From the IMG/VR virus record IMGVR_UViG_2585427777_000015: 11,069 nucleotides of DNA; one strand, written 5' to 3'. The stretch comes from a virus. Lineage: Duplodnaviria > Heunggongvirae > Uroviricota > Caudoviricetes. The notes beneath the pieces were generated by a model that saw only the letters and a list, made by a program, of their open reading frames with translations, did no database searches and had not been told where the DNA came from. Position 1 is the first letter of the stretch. The number at the start of each line of letters is the position of its first letter. Made by a program: the position numbers and the translations under genes. Shown in pieces: positions 1 through 8,760 of this stretch.

Positions 1-285
1 TTCCGTCATGGCACCGAGAAAATCATTCAGCGTACCTGGTCTGGAGCCTTCATAGACGGTAATGGTCCCAACATGTGAAGGCGGAAAACCTTCAACCAGC
101 AGGGTGACGCTGTACTGACCATGCTCAACATCCATGCTGTAACGTCCGGCTTCATCCGGATTTTCAGAGGCCACCGTGTTCACCACCACCGTGCTGCTGG
201 TTCGTCTGGCCTTCAGCACAATGGTGCAGTTCTGTACTGGTTTTCCTGTGCCATCTTTAAGCACGCCAGAAATTTTTACTGTCAT
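1..285 (-). CDS. stf: Side tail fibre protein Stf, N-terminal 95 codons (partial, continues beyond window start)
   Basis: Minus-strand ATG at 285-283 preceded by GGTGGAAAAGT; translation MTVKISGVLKDGTGKPVQNCTIVLKARR...GFPPSHVGTITVYE matches my recollection of the conserved N-terminus of lambda Stf (orf401). Position after lom is the lambda gene order. Confidence 0.85.
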   Translation of the reverse strand, partial: MTVKISGVLKDGTGKPVQNCTIVLKARRTSSTVVVNTVASENPDEAGRYSMDVEHGQYSVTLLVEGFPPSHVGTITVYEGSRPGTLNDFLGAMTE

Positions 286-296
286 ACTTTTCCACC

Positions 297-332
297 AATA
301 AAAAAAGCCCGCAGCAGTGACGCCACGGGCTT
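297..332 (-). terminator. Putative intrinsic terminator between lom and stf
   Basis: Minus-strand hairpin (stem AAGCCCG/CGGGCTT, plus 305-332, 14-nt loop) followed by a T7 run (plus A-run 300-306). The loop is long, so only moderate. Confidence 0.45.
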
Positions 333-436
333 CAGGACAGTGTAACTTTACGTTTCCTCAAACGCAGTTCACCCCATAAGGTGGATGAACCTGCGTATCA
401 TAACAATATTTACAGAAGATAAATCGGCGTCTGTTG

Positions 437-1036
437 TCAGAAACGGTATCCGATACCAACAATAAATGCATCCGTTCGCCAGTCGCCACTACCGGAACCT
501 TCATAAGCAAGGTCAATGGTCACGGATTCGGTCGGATTAAACTGCACGCCAGCCCCCCACGCCAGAGACGTGTTGCTGTGGCGACCGTCATCACTTCCGG
601 TCAGCACATCGTGCGTTTTCCCCTTGTTGTCAGTTACGCGGAGATAATCCCCGGAGAAAGTCGACACACGGCTGTAAGCCACACCCACCATCGCATACGC
701 GCTGAACCATTCATTCACGCGTACAGACGGCCCCGCCATCACGCTGAACCAGCGGTTACGCACGGAATCTTCATGCCAGCGGGTATCGCTGTAGCGCGTT
801 TTTTGCTCATCCTCAGCATTGGCATAACTGAAGGACGTAATCAGCCCCAGCGCGTCCGTAAACTCATAACGGTATTTCACGTTAATCCCGTTCAGATCAT
901 CACTACCGGGAACGTTCGTCGAGGCATGGAGATACCCCGCGCTCAGCGTGGACTGATGTTCTGCTGCACTCGCTGGCGTAGCAGCGGCGACCTGCCAGAC
1001 TACTGCGGACAAAATAACAGCACATAATTTACGCAT
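437..1036 (-). CDS. lom: Lom outer-membrane protein (Ail/Lom/OmpX beta-barrel family)
   Basis: 199-aa ORF with signal peptide (MRKLCAVILSAVVWQVAAATPASA) and C-terminal motif DLAYEGSGSGDWRTDAFIVGIGYRF ending in aromatic F, matching lambda Lom as I recall it. SD GAGAGG upstream of ATG at 1036-1034. Located directly after J as in lambda. Confidence 0.9.
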   Translation of the reverse strand: MRKLCAVILSAVVWQVAAATPASAAEHQSTLSAGYLHASTNVPGSDDLNGINVKYRYEFTDALGLITSFSYANAEDEQKTRYSDTRWHEDSVRNRWFSVMAGPSVRVNEWFSAYAMVGVAYSRVSTFSGDYLRVTDNKGKTHDVLTGSDDGRHSNTSLAWGAGVQFNPTESVTIDLAYEGSGSGDWRTDAFIVGIGYRF

Positions 1037-1057
1037 AATTACCTCTCGCTTTTCTGC

Positions 1058-1084
1058 AATAAAAAAGGCGCCATTTCTGGCGCC
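1058..1084 (-). terminator. Intrinsic terminator between J and lom
   Basis: Perfect 6-bp GC stem GGCGCC/GGCGCC (plus 1067-1084, loop ATTTCT) followed on the minus strand by TTTTTTATT. Confidence 0.6.
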
Positions 1085-1103
1085 CGTATCTGGGTTATAA
1101 AAT

Positions 1104-4100
1104 TCAGCTAATCGTGATGCCTGCAGTGGCTTTCTTCATCACCACAACCAGCAAATCGCTGATACTTGCTGTGGGATACCAGTTATTTACCAGCCATGCT
1201 GACACCGAAAACTCCAGTGTCATGTGACCGTGACCGGCAGGCATATCAATAACACCACTGTAAATCAGCGTATTATCCAGCGCGGTACGGTTATAAATTT
1301 CAGCACCGTTTTTCCGCACTATCAGACGGCATGAGGAGTAAATATCAGTATGCTCTTTCTCATGTTTAGCGCCGCTGAATGCCACCGCCGGAATAACAAT
1401 CTGCCGGTCAAACGGCTGATCGTCATAAACCCTGACGGTAATGGTTCCTGATGGCCACCGCTCCGGTGCACGGGAGTCCCGAGGGAAAGCTTTGCCCACT
1501 GTTTTAACGAGATCGCCTTCAATCTGGTTCGCGGACAATTTTCCCAGAACCCGACAGTTCTCGTTAATCGTGACGTTGTTGAGCGTCCCGGAGTTCGCAT
1601 TCACGTTACCGCTGATATCGGCATTTTTCGCCGTCAGCCGCCCGTCCGGTGTCAGGGAAAATGCCGGAGGATTACCGCCGCTGGTAATGGTGGGAGCCGT
1701 CAGATATTTCAGGAACACTTCATTCATAAATATCTGATCGCCCTGACCAACAAACATCGGCTTTGTGTTGCCATTCGCAGGATTAATCATCGCAATCCTG
1801 TCTGCCGCCAGCAGCACCTGACTCTGCATTCCTGCTGGCGTATTCTCAATACCGGCACCGATACCCGCAATATAAAGGCGTCCGTCCTGCATCTGCTGCA
1901 GTTTCACGGCCCACATGCTGTTCAGGTTATTATTTGTATCAACCTGAACTTTCTGTATCTGCTGGATTGCCGCACTCTGATTTTCCAGTTTTTTATTGAC
2001 GGTCTGCGTGATTTCATTGCTGACATTCGTAATGGACGTCCTGATTTCAGCCAGGTCCGGCGCAAGCTGACCGTTATCAATCTGCGTCCACAGCTCCTGG
2101 GCCAGATGTGTTTTCCCGATTTCTCCTTTGAAAAAATCCAGGTAACCTTCCGCATCATCGCTCGCCCGACCGACAGCCTCCACGAATGCCGATTTGCCAA
2201 CAGTATTCACACTGCGGATATAAAAATAATAATCATGGCCCGGCTTGATATTGATACTGGCAGCTATCCAGTACAGCGCCGAGCCAAGATAGCGGGCTGC
2301 GGTTTCAACCTGCCTGATATCCGCAATCCGCTTTTCTGAGAACCAGAACTCAAACTGTACCGTCGGATCATAAACGGCAAGATACGGCGTGGCGGTTATC
2401 TGAAAATAGCCCGGCGTCAGCTCAATCCGCGACGGCGCTGCCGGTGCGGCAATCCGGAACGATACCGATGCCGGATCGCCCTGCTGCCCCCAGGCATTTG
2501 CCGCCCGGACTGTCAGCCTGTAGTTCCCTGGCGCCAGTTGCGTGAAGCGGTATGTGGTTTCCGTCGTCCTGGCCGTGCTGACCAGCCGCTCACTGCCATC
2601 ATCCGCTGCCACGGTCAGGCGAAGCAGGAAGCTCACGCCCTTCACCACCTTCGGCGTGTCCCAGCGGGCCAGTACCTGATACTCCCCGCTGTCTGCGGTG
2701 ACTTCGGCAGTCAGGTGCTGCACCGCTGGCGGCGTGACACCATTCACCGTGCCGCTCTGGTCGCCGTCAAAGTGCGCCCCGTTATCCACGATGGCTTCTT
2801 TTTCCGGTACATGCTGCACGGCGGTGATGGCATACGTGCCGTCATCGTTCTCACGGATACTCACGCAGCGGAACAGGCGCTGGCGCAGCGTCGGCAGCTT
2901 CAGCCCCCACACGCTGTATTCGGCAACGCCGTCAGGAACACGGCTCACTTTCACCTTCACGCCGTCGGTGACGGACTGGACCTCCACGCTGACCGGATTC
3001 CCCTGTCCGTCAACCAGGCTTATCAGCGTGGTGCCGGAGGATGGCAGCGTGATTTCACGGTCGAGCGTCAGCGTCCGGGTCTGGCTGTTTACCGCCAGCA
3101 CGCGCCCGCCGGTGCTGATACCGGCATAGTCATCATCACAGATTTCAATGACATCGCCCGGCACATGGCGAAGCCCTTCTGCGCCGACGCTGAAATCCAC
3201 GGTCTGCGTTTCCAGCAGTTCTGTTTTAATCAGCCACAGCCCGGCGCGGTGTGCCTGCCCCCGACTGGTACAGCCAAAGGCATCCATCTTCGTGACGTTA
3301 CGACCGTAACGGGCAATGGCCTGCGTGTCCTCCACAAGCTCTGTCGCCGTCTCCCAGCCGTTATCCGGGTCAATCCAGTTCACCTCAACGGCATTATGGC
3401 GGTCCTTCAGGGCGCTGAAGCTGTAGCGGAACGGCGCGCCATCATCCGGCATCACCACATTACTGCGGTTATAGGTCCACACCTTATCCGACGGTCGGTC
3501 CTGCACGAACGTCAGCGTCTGCCCGTTCCATACCGGCATACAGCGCATCGCCGAGCAGAAATCACTGAGCACATCCCACGCCTTGCGCTGTGTGGTCAGG
3601 TAAGCGTTACAGGTGATGCGCGGCTCCGTGCCACCAAAGCCATCCGGCACTGACTGGTCGCAGTACTGGCCGATGACATACAGCGCCCATTTATCCACAT
3701 CCGCCGCACCAAGACGTTTCCCCATGCCGTAGCGCGGGTGGGTCAGCATATCCCACAGACACCATGCCATGTTGTTGCTGTATGCTGGCTTAAACGTTCC
3801 GTCCCAGATACCGCTGTATTGCCGCGTCTGCGGGTTATAGTTCGACGGCACCTGCAGAATGCGCCCGCGAAGATGATAATTACGGCTCACCTGCTGGCTG
3901 CCGAACTGCTCCGAGTCCACCTGCACGCCGACCAGTGCCGTGTTCGGGTAGCACTGTTTCACATCGATGATTTCGGTGTATGACGACCAGAGCGTTTTGT
4001 TCTGCAGCTGGTCTGTGGTGCTGTCCGGCGTCATCCTGCGCATCCGGATATTAAACGGGCGCGGCGGCAGGTTACCCACCACCACCGAGGCCAGATACTG

Positions 4101-4583
4101 TGAGGTGGTTTTGCCTTTAATGGTGATGTCTTTTTCCGTCACCCAGCCACCGTTACGTTGTATCTGAACCAGCAGGCGGACTTCCGACGGATTCCGGTCC
4201 CCCTTTGAGGTGGTTTCCACCAGAGCCTGCACACCGAAGGTAAAGCGCAGACGGTCGATGTTTGCCGACGTGATGGTCCGGGTGATCGGCGTGTCATATT
4301 TCACTTCCGTACCCAGCACCGTCTCGGAACCGGAGGATTCAAATCCCTCCGGCGGTGTCTGCTCCTGCTCACCTGCCCGGAACACCACCGTGACACCGGA
4401 GATGTTGGTATTCCCCTCACTGTCCAGCACCGGTGTACTGTTCAGCAGCACGCTTTTTAATCCATCCACCGGACCTTCAATCGGCCCTTCGCTGATGGCA
4501 TCGATCACACTCAGTAATTGCGTGGATTTCAGGTTGTCCTTCGCTTCGCGCGGGGTATGCCCCTTACTGCTTCCTTTACCCAT
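1104..4583 (-). CDS. J: Tail tip fibre / host specificity protein J (central tail fibre, receptor-binding)
   Basis: 1159-aa ORF starting [54 protein letters not shown], the lambda gpJ N-terminus as I recall it; size (lambda J about 1132 aa) and position between I and lom agree. SD GGAG/GAGGA upstream of ATG at 4583. Confidence 0.95.
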
Positions 4584-4596
4584 TCCTCACACTCCA

Positions 4597-4625
4597 TAAA
4601 CAACAAAGCCGCCCAAAAGGCGGCT
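4597..4625 (-). terminator. Putative terminator downstream of the lipoprotein moron, immediately upstream of J
   Basis: Minus-strand hairpin AGCCGCC-TTTTG-GGCGGCT (plus 4607-4625) followed by TTGTTGTTTATGG (U-rich but interrupted). Confidence 0.45.
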
Positions 4626-4649
4626 CATGAGTTACAGCAGGATTAACTA

Positions 4650-4988
4650 TTATTTACATGCATTAACACTATCAGCAAAAATTTTTGGCGTTAATGCTGG
4701 TACACGTTCATAAAGAGTAAAACTACTGCCATTTCCTGCTTTTTTGATATCAAGCACAACATCATATCCCCCCATAGCCTGTGGAACTAAAAGGCTTACC
4801 CCATTCTCAATAGGAAGGGATGTTATAGGTGTTCCATTACCAGTCCATTGTCTGGATATGCAGCCTGACAATTCATCAATATTTTTTAATGAATTACCTT
4901 CCATTACAGGTTTTCCGGATTTTACGTAATCCAAAGATTTACATCCTGTTAAGGCAATAATCGTGCAGAATAAAATCGTTTTGTTCAT
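4650..4988 (-). CDS. Small predicted lipoprotein (about 112 aa), moron inserted between I and J; function unknown
   Basis: ORF with probable ATG start at 4988-4986 (the track's longer ORF starts at an upstream TTG). N-terminus MNKTILFCTIIALTGC is a lipoprotein signal peptide with lipobox LTGC. Region 4630-5060 is visibly AT-rich against GC-rich tail genes. Lambda has only about 60 nt between I and J. Confidence 0.6.
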   Translation of the reverse strand: MNKTILFCTIIALTGCKSLDYVKSGKPVMEGNSLKNIDELSGCISRQWTGNGTPITSLPIENGVSLLVPQAMGGYDVVLDIKKAGNGSSFTLYERVPALTPKIFADSVNACK

Positions 4989-5060
4989 ATAGCTAACCAA
5001 TAGAATAATTATCAGTGTTCGATATAAATATTAAATCAGTTAGAACATGAGTAAATAATA

Positions 5061-5702
5061 TTACCGCCCAATTACCACAACCTGACCACCATCCCCTTCA
5101 TCTGCCGTGCTGATCTCCTGAGATGCCACACGTGACCCCACGCGCATTTCACCGTACAGAACAGGCAGGACATTGCCCTGGGCAACCATGTTATCCAGTG
5201 AGGAGAAATAGGTGTTCTGTTTGCCGTTATCCGTTGTCTGTGTACGTGGAGTTTTGGGTTTAGGGGCCAGCATCTGTGCGACACCACCAAGCGTCATCGC
5301 TGCCCCCATAGAAAAGAGAATGTTACTGAAAGCGATACTGATTCCTGGCATCCAGATTGCCGTAGCAATCAGCGCCGCACCCAGCACTGCCTGAAAAACA
5401 CCACCACTTTTGGCACCCGCCAGACGCGGTACGATGTGGATCACGGCACCATTTGCCAGCGGCTCATTAAGACGGGATGATAATTCGGTTTCTCCTGCAT
5501 CCCGCCCGGCAATCCGTACCTGATACCAGCCATCGCTCAGTTTCTGACGAAACGCCGGGAGCTGTGTGGCCAGTGCGCGGATGGCTTCAGCCCCCGTTTT
5601 CACACGAAGGTCGATGCGGCGGCCAAATCGTTGCAAATCCCCGTAAAGGCAGATGCGTGCCATGCCCGGTGACGCCAGAGGGAGTGTGTGCGTCGCTGCC
5701 AT
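5061..5702 (-). CDS. I: Tail tip assembly protein I
   Basis: 213-aa ORF MAATHTLPLASPGMARICLYGDLQRFGRRIDLRVKTGAEAIRALATQLPAF... matching lambda gpI as recalled; its 5' end overlaps the 3' end of K by about 100 nt in another frame, as in lambda. Confidence 0.9.
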   Translation of the reverse strand: MAATHTLPLASPGMARICLYGDLQRFGRRIDLRVKTGAEAIRALATQLPAFRQKLSDGWYQVRIAGRDAGETELSSRLNEPLANGAVIHIVPRLAGAKSGGVFQAVLGAALIATAIWMPGISIAFSNILFSMGAAMTLGGVAQMLAPKPKTPRTQTTDNGKQNTYFSSLDNMVAQGNVLPVLYGEMRVGSRVASQEISTADEGDGGQVVVIGR

Positions 5703-6343
5703 TTGTCGGTGTACCTCTCTCGTTTGCTCAGTTGTTCAGGAATATGGTGCAGCAGCTCGCCGTCACCACAGTAAATGGCGGCATGATTCGGCACCGATGA
5801 ACCAAAACAGCACAGCAGCACATCGCCCGGCTGCGCCTCTGTCAGTGCGACACGGTAAAAACCAGTAGCCTCCATATTGTCAAGATAGAGATTCTGACCG
5901 TGACGCCACCAGTCATCCCCGCGATGAAAATTCGGCATCTCAATCCCCGCCAGATGATAAGCATCCCGGAACAGCGTGTAACAGTCCGTCACCCCGTGCT
6001 CAAAGCGCCGCCCGGTGAGATGCGGCACACAGCGGAACTTATGAATCGCCCCCCGGCAGACCAGCCACCACGGCAAATCACTCTGCACCTGCAGCCGCCG
6101 GTCAGCCTCACTCAGCCAGGGCAGACCACCGGGGTGGCTGTGGACCAGCGCCACAATCTCACCCTGCATTTCTGCCTGCAGCCAGTCCTCCGGAGCCATC
6201 CGGAAATAATCCTCCGGCTCACCGGAAATATTCACGCCGGGAAAATATCTTTCCCCCTCCGGCGCTCTCACCACGAAGCCGCACGACTCCGCTGGCGCAC
6301 ATCGCCGGGCGTGCGCCAGAATCGCTGATTCTGTCTCTGTCAT
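5600..6343 (-). CDS. K: Tail tip assembly protein K (JAMM/MPN + NlpC/P60 two-domain protein)
   Basis: Start taken at ATG 6343-6341 (MTETESAILAHARRCAPAESCGF...), 4 nt after the L stop; the track's longer ORF begins inside L. JAMM-like motif VHSHPGGLPWLSEAD and NlpC/P60-like Cys/His region (GVTDCYTLF ... NHAAIY) are visible. Confidence 0.9.
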   Translation of the reverse strand: MTETESAILAHARRCAPAESCGFVVRAPEGERYFPGVNISGEPEDYFRMAPEDWLQAEMQGEIVALVHSHPGGLPWLSEADRRLQVQSDLPWWLVCRGAIHKFRCVPHLTGRRFEHGVTDCYTLFRDAYHLAGIEMPNFHRGDDWWRHGQNLYLDNMEATGFYRVALTEAQPGDVLLCCFGSSVPNHAAIYCGDGELLHHIPEQLSKRERYTDKWQRRTHSLWRHRAWHASAFTGICNDLAAASTFV

Positions 6344-6347
6344 GGGA

Positions 6348-7046
6348 TTACTGCGAAAGTTTGTTAATGGAAAGGAAGCCGCCAAAGTTGCCGACGTTAT
6401 TGCGAAACTTACAGCCGCTCAGGCATTTGCTGCATTTATCCTTCGTGATATCGGACGTCGGCTGGTCATATTCATCCGCGACTGCCGGACCGTGATAACC
6501 GCACTCATCACCGCGATAGGTCCAGGTGCAGGTGTTGGCCAGCATGATACGCCCCGGAAAAACAGCGCCATCCGTTTCCGTCGGCGTGGACAGTACAAAG
6601 GAGGCACTCACCGCGCTCAGTTCGCTGCACTGCTCGATGCGCCAGCGGCTGATCACCTCCTGCTCCGGATCGGCGTCACTGTTTCCGTTGACGAAGTTCA
6701 CCGCATCCAGAAAACGGGCGTAAACCTTACGCCGAACCACCGTTCCGCCGACCAGACTCTGCAGATCTTCCGCCATCCCGGTGACCATACCGTACAGGTT
6801 AGAAACCGTCAGCGTGGGGCGCGTACTGGTGCCTTTGCCATTCAGTTCAAAACCACTCCCCTGAATGGGATACGGCTGATACTGTCGCCCCTGCCAGGTG
6901 ACCGGCTCACCTTTTTCGTTCTGCTCATTACAGAAAAAATAACGTTCTCCACCGACCTCTGTCAGGTCGATTTCCCAGAGCACCACGCTGGCCGACTGCT
7001 CCGCACGGGTGCATTCATTCAGTGTTTCCTGCCGGATATCCTGCAT
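6348..7046 (-). CDS. L: Tail tip protein L
   Basis: 232-aa ORF, same length as lambda gpL; C-terminal cysteine cluster (CTWTYRGDECGY ... CSKCLSGCKF) consistent with the Fe-S binding region of gpL. Start ATG overlaps the M stop by 1 nt, as in lambda. Confidence 0.9.
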   Translation of the reverse strand: MQDIRQETLNECTRAEQSASVVLWEIDLTEVGGERYFFCNEQNEKGEPVTWQGRQYQPYPIQGSGFELNGKGTSTRPTLTVSNLYGMVTGMAEDLQSLVGGTVVRRKVYARFLDAVNFVNGNSDADPEQEVISRWRIEQCSELSAVSASFVLSTPTETDGAVFPGRIMLANTCTWTYRGDECGYHGPAVADEYDQPTSDITKDKCSKCLSGCKFRNNVGNFGGFLSINKLSQ

Positions 7047-7378
7047 CAGTTCACCACCTGTTCAAACTCTGCGCTGAACTCAACACGCAGCATACTGACC
7101 CGCGACGACCATTTTGCGCAGGTCACCTTTATCTGCCGCCACTCATAAGGCGGCGTCCACAGAAAGGCTTTCCAGCCCCCGTGCTCTTCCAGAAACGACT
7201 CCAGTACCGTGGCCTCCTCACGGGGGACAGAAAGCGTCACGCTGTACGTTTTCAGGTTGGCATTCAGCCCGGCAGGCGCTCGCTGAGAATAGCCATCACC
7301 AAAGCGCACCTTTCTTACAGAAGGGGCCGAAGCCACATCCATACCGGGTTTCACTTTCCAGCGGAAGGTCTTCATCAT
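7046..7378 (-). CDS. M: Tail tip protein M
   Basis: 110-aa ORF MMKTFRWKVKPGMDV... matching lambda gpM size and position; ATG overlaps the H stop (ATGA). Confidence 0.9.
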   Translation of the reverse strand: MMKTFRWKVKPGMDVASAPSVRKVRFGDGYSQRAPAGLNANLKTYSVTLSVPREEATVLESFLEEHGGWKAFLWTPPYEWRQIKVTCAKWSSRVSMLRVEFSAEFEQVVN

Positions 7379-7620
7379 CCACCTCCGGAGAACAGACCAC
7401 CATCGCGCATCTGTGCCTGAATTTCATCACGGGCACCCTTGCGGGCCATGTCATACACTGCCTTCATCATCTGTGGACCTGGCAGACCATTCGTACCGTC
7501 GTTCTGAATCACCACGTGATTGTTCTGATTAAAATTAATGCCTTCAGCCCGCCGCATCTGCGCCGGACTTCCGGCACCGCCCACATAACCACCTTCCGCA
7601 TATATGCACCATATACCACT
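7375..7620 (-). pseudogene. H: 3'-terminal remnant (about 80 codons) of tape-measure gene H
   Basis: Frame open from an in-frame stop at 7621-7623 to the TGA at 7377-7375; translation ...GGAGSPAQMRRAEGINFNQNNHVVIQNDGTNGLPGPQMMKAVYDMARKGARDEIQAQMRDGGLFSGGG resembles the lambda gpH C-terminus and has the classic 4-nt overlap with M. A full H would be about 850 codons; the upstream sequence is an unrelated gene. Confidence 0.8.
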
Positions 7621-8507
7621 TCATATTGCGTACCGTGTTCTTGTTTCCACGCGTATGTCGTGTCGCCACAAATCCAGGGGACTGATGCCGGACTTCCACC
7701 GTGACACTGCGCCGCCAGCCCGGCAAGGTCAGCACGGAACTGCTGTACCATTGCAAGAAATGCTGCTGGCTGCTGGGCGTAACTGGCATTCGTCATATCG
7801 AATTCCCCCTGCATCCAGCATATCGCCAGCAAAACGTTTTTCGGGTTTTTCTGCAATGCTGCCTTCGTGCGGAAAAGCAGATCCTGATATAACGGCTTAC
7901 CCACTCCCCAGCGAGCCGAATCCTGACTGGCTCCCGTGGACTCGCTGAATGTCCCCTCCGTGCCCTGGGTGAATGCCGAACCACCACGACAGCATGGTAC
8001 CAGCAGGATCCCCGCATTATTAGGGATATACGGAAGCAGTTTTTTGGCAATATGTAAGCCCTGTCCGACACAGCCGTACTGCCCTTTGCTCAGGTCAGCC
8101 CGGGGATGGTTAATCGTACTCATATCCTGAACATCATGCAGACAATGGTCAGCAGGAATGATGTCGTTAAATACGCATACTTCACCACCGGGAGTCACTG
8201 TGTTACGACGGGCCAGTTGCTTAATGCGCGGATGGGGCGCATCGTATGAATCCGGAAGCGGAAGCCCTTCACCGTAAGCCATGGCATTGGATTGCCCGGC
8301 CAGTACGATGACGTAGTACCACTCCGGCTCAGTTGCACCACTGACGACCACATCACCTTCTGCTGCAATCGCCTGCATCAGGGTATAAGGGGTTATGGCC
8401 ACCGGACTACCAAACGGCTGCCAGCCCTCCTTCAGTTTTTGTGTCAGTCGTTTCGCAAGGTCTGACGGCGATGCCGCCCTGACCACGTCATAGTGTTTAA
8501 ATGCCAT
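7509..8507 (-). CDS. NanS-p-like sialate O-acetylesterase (DUF1737 N-domain + SGNH/SASA esterase), apparently 3'-truncated and fused out of frame to the H remnant
   Basis: Strong SD GGGAGGA before ATG 8507. N-terminus MAFKHYDVVRAASPSDLAKRLTQKLKEGW (DUF1737-like), then VIVLAGQSNAMAYGEGLPLPD...PHPRIKQLAR...ILLVPCCRGGSAFT...CWMQGEFD...WICGDTTYAWK, which tracks E. coli NanS/YjhS as I recall it. Similarity ends near YGAY (about 7602); the last ~30 codons read H-remnant DNA in the wrong frame. Confidence 0.8.
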   Translation of the reverse strand: MAFKHYDVVRAASPSDLAKRLTQKLKEGWQPFGSPVAITPYTLMQAIAAEGDVVVSGATEPEWYYVIVLAGQSNAMAYGEGLPLPDSYDAPHPRIKQLARRNTVTPGGEVCVFNDIIPADHCLHDVQDMSTINHPRADLSKGQYGCVGQGLHIAKKLLPYIPNNAGILLVPCCRGGSAFTQGTEGTFSESTGASQDSARWGVGKPLYQDLLFRTKAALQKNPKNVLLAICWMQGEFDMTNASYAQQPAAFLAMVQQFRADLAGLAAQCHGGSPASVPWICGDTTYAWKQEHGTQYEVVYGAYMRKVVMWAVPEVRRRCGGLKALILIRTITW

Positions 8508-8700
8508 GAATCCTCCCGGGCGGGATAATGTTGTGAGTCAGATAAGGAGCAGGCTGAAGTCCGGAAGTTACAGGACAATGGCAGAAGGGAGACTACAGCC
8601 CGCAATTCGAAAAAGACCGCGCAGTTGCGCAGAGTGATTACTATGGGGTATTATTCGCCAGCTGAAATATTACTTCACGTTTTATTGTTTATTCCTTGCC

Positions 8701-8729
8701 GCCCGCGTCTCCCAGCGCGGGCTTTTTTT
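8701..8729 (+). terminator. Plus-strand-oriented intrinsic terminator-like element
   Basis: Stem GCCCGCG/CGCGGGC (8701-8707 and 8716-8722, loop TCTCCCAG) followed by T7 (8723-8729) on the plus strand. No plus-strand gene is evident upstream. Confidence 0.4.
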
Positions 8730-8740
8730 GTCCATAAGAA

Positions 8741-8760
8741 AGCCCCTCCGGAGAGGGGCT
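8741..8760. repeat. Perfect 8-bp inverted repeat / hairpin
   Basis: AGCCCCTC-CGGA-GAGGGGCT, a perfect palindrome 12 nt downstream of the 8701-8729 element. Confidence 0.4.

Follow-up and report, generated by a model that had tools for sequence, protein, structure and literature searches.

Gene content of the locus

The window (the whole 11,069-nucleotide stretch of DNA analysed here) is identical to the complete NCBI contig JOST01000156.1 of E. coli 5-366-08_S4_C1 (GCA_000713855.1, exact look-up). A literature search found no paper on strain 5-366-08. The genes of the window mark it as the late region of a lambda-like (non-Stx) E. coli prophage. Both contig ends lie inside the prophage, where they fall in the repeated prophage genes Q and tail fibre, and all genes of interest are on the minus strand. 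Our reference is the EC488 prophage (NZ_CP109874.1, 2,790,000–2,830,000) together with its equivalents in EC1, KE40, HR5-1 and WP7-S17-ESBL-01, whose flanks match the window at 98.8–100% DNA identity. These prophages share the order of the window (Q, methylase, three tRNAs, nanS-p ... H, M, L, K, I, J, lom, tail fibre) but carry 17,419 bp that are missing from it. From Q to the tail fibre, the features are as follows.

10939–11069, minus strand: 3′ end of the antiterminator gene Q, last 42 codons and stop; the remainder lies past the contig end
10841–10856, minus strand: candidate tR′-type terminator immediately downstream of Q, a GC-rich hairpin followed by a T run (consensus scan)
10515–10712, minus strand: 65-aa phage ORF, phrog_331, function not assigned (annotation and gene callers)
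9315–10364, minus strand: DNA methyltransferase (N6_N4_Mtase), late-region cargo (Pfam E = 2.3e-44; DNA-methyltransferase in EC488)
9016–9265, minus strand: three tRNA genes, CAT, Arg-TCG and Arg-TCT (ARAGORN; EC488 annotation)
7603–8507, minus strand: 5′ part of nanS-p, codons 1–302, with DUF1737 and the esterase domain short of its His block (Pfam DUF1737, SASA; 100% DNA identity to SASA esterase genes from 7601 on; protein alignment)
7601–7602, no strand: deletion junction, 2-bp ‘TA’ present in both parents (BLAST and base-by-base view)
7509–7600, minus strand: out-of-frame tail of the fusion ORF, 30 codons and stop, through H DNA (ORF translation, alignment)
7375–7602, minus strand: remnant of the tape-measure gene H, last 75 codons and stop, N-terminal part gone (equals the 3′ end of EC488 H)
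7046–7378, minus strand: M, intact tail-tip gene (Pfam Phage_min_tail E = 1e-39; 0 differences from EC488)
6348–7046, minus strand: L, intact tail-tip gene (Pfam Phage_tail_L E = 5e-101; 0 aa differences)
5600–6343, minus strand: K (JAB and NlpC/P60), intact tail-tip gene (Pfam; EC488 comparison)
5061–5702, minus strand: I, intact tail assembly gene (Pfam; EC488 comparison)
4650–4988, minus strand: 112-aa lipoprotein-like ORF between I and J, phrog_914, function not assigned
1104–4583, minus strand: J, tail-tip/host-recognition gene, 1159 aa, intact here, frameshifted in a sister assembly
437–1036, minus strand: lom (Ail/Lom outer-membrane protein), intact (Pfam E = 4e-124; 0 differences)
1–285, minus strand: side tail-fibre gene, 5′ end only, truncated where the contig stops (phage_tail_N)

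The translated Q fragment matches, without a difference, the C-terminal end of the EC488 ‘antitermination protein’ (273 aa). The hairpin at 10841–10856 is presumably of the tR′ type, an assignment made by position only. Another terminator-like hairpin (10528–10511) follows the 65-aa ORF, for which the mechanical ORF spans 10515–10799 (minus strand, 94 aa, GTG start), the annotation and the gene callers taking the 65-aa version. The CAT tRNA (9190–9265, minus strand) is Met according to ARAGORN and tRNA-Ile in the EC488 annotation, presumably of the ileX/ileZ type with a lysidine modification. The CAT/Arg-TCG/Arg-TCT trio is similar to the tRNA cluster that Stx phages carry; the stx operon does not follow here.

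On the tail side M, L, K, I and J, which the first-pass annotation had listed as an intact tail-tip module, are full length, as are lom and the lipoprotein-like ORF; each has 0–1 aa differences from EC488. The stop codon of H overlaps the start of M, which has its own GGAGGTG Shine–Dalgarno sequence. The 112-aa ORF between I and J has a signal peptide and a lipobox (…ALTGC), gives no Pfam match and is conserved in EC488; it may be a moron, for example a superinfection-exclusion lipoprotein. A 371-aa open frame on the plus strand (2538–3653), antisense to J, is probably a codon-composition by-product of the long J ORF and not a gene.

The nanS-p/H junction and the missing block

BLAST aligns window positions 2–7602 (tail side) with positions 3748–11348 of the EC488 prophage locus at 99.79% identity, and positions 7601–8969 (nanS side) with 28766–30134. 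The two blocks are collinear and in the same orientation in EC488; the 17,419 bp between them are what the window is missing. Viewed base by base, the switch from one parent to the other falls at 7601/7602, on a shared ‘TA’ beyond which similarity ends. The nanS-p sequence at the junction continues to ...GGTGCATATA, the H sequence starts at TATGCGGAAGG... and continues onward, and the breakpoints correspond to codon 302/303 of nanS-p and codon 781/782 of H. The same view found neither an IS element nor filler DNA at the junction. The first-pass annotation had placed a nanS/H deletion junction at 7585–7625, which is thus borne out, and had called for a search for microhomology at the flanks, which yields only the 2-bp ‘TA’. 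An overlap of this size is within chance expectation (at least 2 bp are shared in ∼ 16% of random joins) and tells little about the enzymes involved; it does not discriminate between slippage and end-joining-like repair. Near the breakpoints the two parents agree at only ∼ 25% of positions, the random level, whichever offset between −6 and +6 is taken, and homologous or repeat-mediated recombination was rejected on this basis. A chance pattern is ruled out because each flank is 99.8–100% identical over kilobases to annotated genes in many genomes.

The ORF that crosses the junction (7509–8507, minus strand) encodes 332 aa and is deposited as KEO25092.1, ‘hypothetical protein AC77_1788’. Its residues 1–302 are identical to the 617-aa SASA-family esterase of EC488 and the protein alignment stops there, in line with the earlier reading that NanS-like sequence runs until about 7602. 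The nanS frame differs from that of H and the fusion is therefore out of frame; the tail of 30 residues, MRKVVMWAVPEVRRRCGGLKALILIRTITW (the ‘about 30 codons’ of the first reading), is translated from H DNA and ends at the stop codon at 7509–7511. In its own frame the H remnant comprises 228 bases (7375–7602) and its C-terminus overlaps M in the way that had been described; the ‘∼ 80 codons’ reported as kept are 75 by count, corresponding to residues 782–856, identical to EC488 H. A 123-nt part of the remnant matches annotated tape-measure genes at 100% identity. Neither Pfam domain of EC488 H (TMP_2, 54–256; Tape_meas_lam_C, 631–705) extends into the remnant, and a Pfam search with its 69-aa ORF found nothing. 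The window thus has no single long ORF combining TMP_2 and Tape_meas_lam_C, the combination that marks a lambda-type gpH.

According to the EC488 annotation, the missing block starts with the 3′ 315 codons of nanS-p (303–617), a class II holin, a YdfR-family protein, lysozyme and an Rz-type lysis protein. It also holds the packaging and head genes (terminase small and large subunits, head–tail joining protein, portal, S49 protease), the capsid genes (decoration protein, major capsid protein, FI), the genes for a second head–tail joining protein, a tail protein, U, the major tail protein, G and T, and several small ORFs, and it ends in H codons 1–781 of 856. The lost tail genes can be summarized as Z, U, V, G and T. 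What had been proposed from the sequence was a single deletion that took away the 3′ half of nanS-p together with the genes for lysis, terminase, portal, head and proximal tail, and with them about 90% of H; exactly these genes occupy the 17,419 bp in EC488 (315 of the 617 nanS-p codons; 781/856 = 91% of H).

The flanks have the same spacing as in EC488 in at least five other complete genomes (EC1, WP7-S17-ESBL-01, HR5-1, HR12-1 and KE40); in two further genomes it differs by ∼ 0.7 kb. One deletion is sufficient to explain the window because the flanks keep the order and orientation of an intact prophage. An inversion, translocation or transposition as the single event was rejected, flank order and orientation being unchanged. 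Head or lysis genes just outside the window, which would have spoken for another explanation, cannot sit inside the element, since the window is unbroken from Q to the tail fibre. The near identity of the flanks to intact prophages indicates that the deletion is recent.

A history of several steps (two or more successive deletions, an IS-mediated deletion with later loss of the IS, or an exchange by recombination of two different co-resident prophages) is in our view improbable. Related prophages do decay stepwise. The E1433 prophage at potB (NZ_CM180511.1, 1263514–1274627; 93.7% identity over the aligned parts) has undergone a number of distinct internal deletions and frameshifts across this region, and in the window the nanS-side flank beyond 8700 is slightly less EC488-like than the tail side. 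However, the junction is seamless and carries neither an IS remnant nor filler; several complete genomes have the two flanks within a single prophage, with order, orientation and spacing unchanged; and a search of 5,426 complete genomes turned up no intermediate junction. The late region of E1433 has likewise collapsed, to ∼ 11 kb from methylase to J, but it has multiple other break points, retains a holin fragment and a capsid gene, and has a truncated M and a frameshifted L. Because these break points differ and are multiple, its decay is independent of that seen here.

Distribution of the junction and fate of the fused reading frame

Among 5,426 complete E. coli genomes (megablast), the tail side aligns to 7602 and the esterase side from 7601, each at 99–100% identity, but the junction itself is absent and no genome spans both sides in one place. 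None of 50,697 phage records gives a junction-spanning match, the alignments again stopping at 7601/7602, and a 30-mer across the junction is absent from the GTDB representative genomes and the JGI metagenomes. A widespread natural architecture was therefore rejected. The exact fusion protein is on record on only two contigs among ∼ 15 billion proteins. The second contig with the same protein and junction is JAGGFU010000073.1 (GCA_025403915.1), which comes from another project. It covers window positions 571–8898, so that its ends differ from those of the window, and it differs from the window by 2 SNPs and a private 10-bp deletion in J (1921–1930), which splits J into ORFs of 889 and 270 aa. 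Sample counts given by the look-up are 2 and 4 for these contigs.

The junction is a rare, lineage-specific allele. The deletion has been inherited, since the same junction is found in two independent assemblies, and the frameshift in J in one of the two indicates that decay is continuing. The split J of the sister assembly also suggests that the tail-tip module is decaying, without strong selection on it.

We give almost no credence to an assembly chimera, in which a nanS-p contig and a tail contig, derived from one or two intact prophages, were wrongly joined. That the window comes from a short-read draft assembly, with both contig ends in repeated prophage genes, and that complete genomes give no match to the junction would be consistent with such an error. 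Mis-joins by graph assemblers, however, arise where k-mers of tens of bases are shared, and here the overlap of the two sides is just 2 bp. The second assembly, which has a different origin, different contig boundaries and private mutations, shows the identical junction, and more than one sample is reported for either contig (2 and 4, as given above). A repeated mis-join at a 2-bp overlap is very unlikely given that the junction recurs independently.

The interval between nanS-p and the tRNAs was also compared. EC488 has ∼ 381 bp more here (window 8739–9018 versus 30000–30650 of the EC488 locus), flanked by imperfect direct repeats of ∼ 100 bp (74/101 identical), of which the window has one hybrid copy. 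JAGGFU010000073.1 ends inside this repeat, at window position 8898. The interval is a mosaic/indel point, unrelated to the main deletion.

The fusion ORF retains DUF1737 (Pfam PF08410, residues 3–50, E = 6.5e-16) and SGNH block I with the nucleophile Ser (GQSN, residues 71–74), which is identical to that of the full-length protein. The NanS-like esterase domain comprises residues 59–379 of the full-length relative (alignment to 3PT5). The last SGNH block, listed as RSSH/RASH/RPTH (PMC10462455), contains the catalytic His; it is RPTH at residues 356–359 of the full-length relative and is absent here. Also absent from the 332-aa product is the C-terminal lectin-like domain (PDB 6YP6; Pfam DUF6645), found at residues 422–613 of the EC488 protein. 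Because the His block and the carbohydrate-binding module are missing, the product is predicted to be inactive. The NanS-p proteins of 933W (L0105) and phi24B (vb_24B_21/gp84) share with it the N-terminal DUF1737 and a NanS-like SGNH esterase domain over its first three quarters, and their genes are likewise positioned downstream of Q and tRNAs. They differ in having the last SGNH block with its His and the lectin-like domain, and in the window, unlike in the Stx phages, there is no stx operon between the tRNAs and nanS-p. With both the His block and the lectin domain gone, the fusion ORF is by its domain content a NanS-p pseudogene remnant, not a functional member of the family, and KEO25092.1 should be annotated as a nanS-p/H fusion pseudogene rather than as a ‘hypothetical protein’. 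We found no natural NanS-p homologue with such a C-terminal end, which would have counted against a fusion; the tail is encoded by H DNA read in another frame, and this DNA matches annotated tape-measure genes at 100% identity.

DUF1737 of the phi24B NanS-p homologue (gp84) has been described in a preprint as a capsid-decorating domain that is released by proteolysis (bioRxiv 10.64898/2026.04.10.717836), which is the context for window positions 8358–8507. If true, nanS-p would be a structural gene rather than pure cargo. A decorating role adds no function to the fusion in the present case, since the capsid genes have been lost. The idea of a short NanS-p isoform that is natural and functional, or of a NanS–H fusion protein that serves a purpose, can practically be dismissed: the ORF is open for 332 codons and keeps DUF1737, reported to bind capsids on its own in phi24B, and the GQSN Ser block, but its tail is the wrong reading frame of H, the His block and lectin domain are missing, the exact protein is known from just the two contigs among ∼ 15 billion proteins and no capsid genes are left to decorate.

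Proposed origin and consequences

It is highly probable that one internal 17,419-bp deletion by illegitimate recombination made this element a cryptic prophage, with a fusion product that is predicted to be inactive. Homology-independent recombination would have joined nanS-p codon 302/303 to H codon 781/782, with replication slippage or end-joining-like break repair as the conceivable routes. The deletion is read from assembled contigs; in principle an excised copy of the 17.4-kb segment could lie elsewhere in the genome, or the history could have had two steps.

Loss of the genes for lysis, DNA packaging, head and tail tube would make particle formation and cell lysis impossible. In lambda no particles are formed without terminase, portal, capsid, V, U, Z, G/T and H, and there is no lysis without holin and endolysin. 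With these particle and lysis genes missing, we infer that the element is a cryptic prophage, unable to kill its host by lysis. The first-pass annotation had likewise anticipated a defective prophage as the outcome of the deletion, and the sequence agrees: the gene order is lambdoid and essential lysis, packaging, head and tail genes are missing.

The deletion leaves the methylase, tRNAs, M-L-K-I-J, lom and the tail fibre as contiguous late genes. If Q and its promoter are intact, late transcription would run through the methylase, the tRNAs and the truncated nanS-p into M–J and lom, ∼ 3.4 kb downstream of Q. A simple scan of the minus strand downstream of Q found no sigma-70 promoter for the late operon, only terminator-like hairpins, and such hairpins also precede nanS. 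We can imagine that the deletion, in moving M-L-K-I-J/lom/tail fibre from ∼ 21 kb to ∼ 3.4 kb downstream of Q, allows a heterologous or resident Q to express the cassette and thereby to supply host-range proteins to co-resident lambdoid phages, but this idea is very doubtful, partly because J is broken in the sister strain. If it were true, J and the tail-tip proteins would be provided to helper virions, leading to phenotypic mixing of host range, and the remnant would be a ready recombination donor of host-range genes that does not kill its host.

The window contains no integrase, no replication module and no helper-exploitation genes of the PICI or cf-PICI-like kind. The element does not look like an evolved phage satellite, as its junction is an out-of-frame scar found in only two assemblies. 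No new mechanism or system is revealed; this is ordinary prophage decay. In E. coli, prophages inactivated by internal deletions, with tail and cargo genes remaining, are a well-known phenomenon, Rac being an example. Rac of E. coli K-12 is, like the element described here, a defective lambdoid prophage with a late region cut to fragments by deletions: the tape-measure remnant ynaA beside lomR, stfR and tfaR, and an Rz pseudogene. In contrast to the window, Rac has also lost M-L-K-I-J and has kept part of the tape-measure domain, whereas here the tail-tip genes survive and the other breakpoint lies in nanS-p. Rac is ancient and fixed in K-12; the deletion in the window is rare and recent.

The locus provides a base-resolved example of the step by which a functional lambdoid prophage becomes cryptic in a single event. 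The junction could be used as a marker of the lineage that carries it, and the frameshift in J is a datable sequel in the sister strain.
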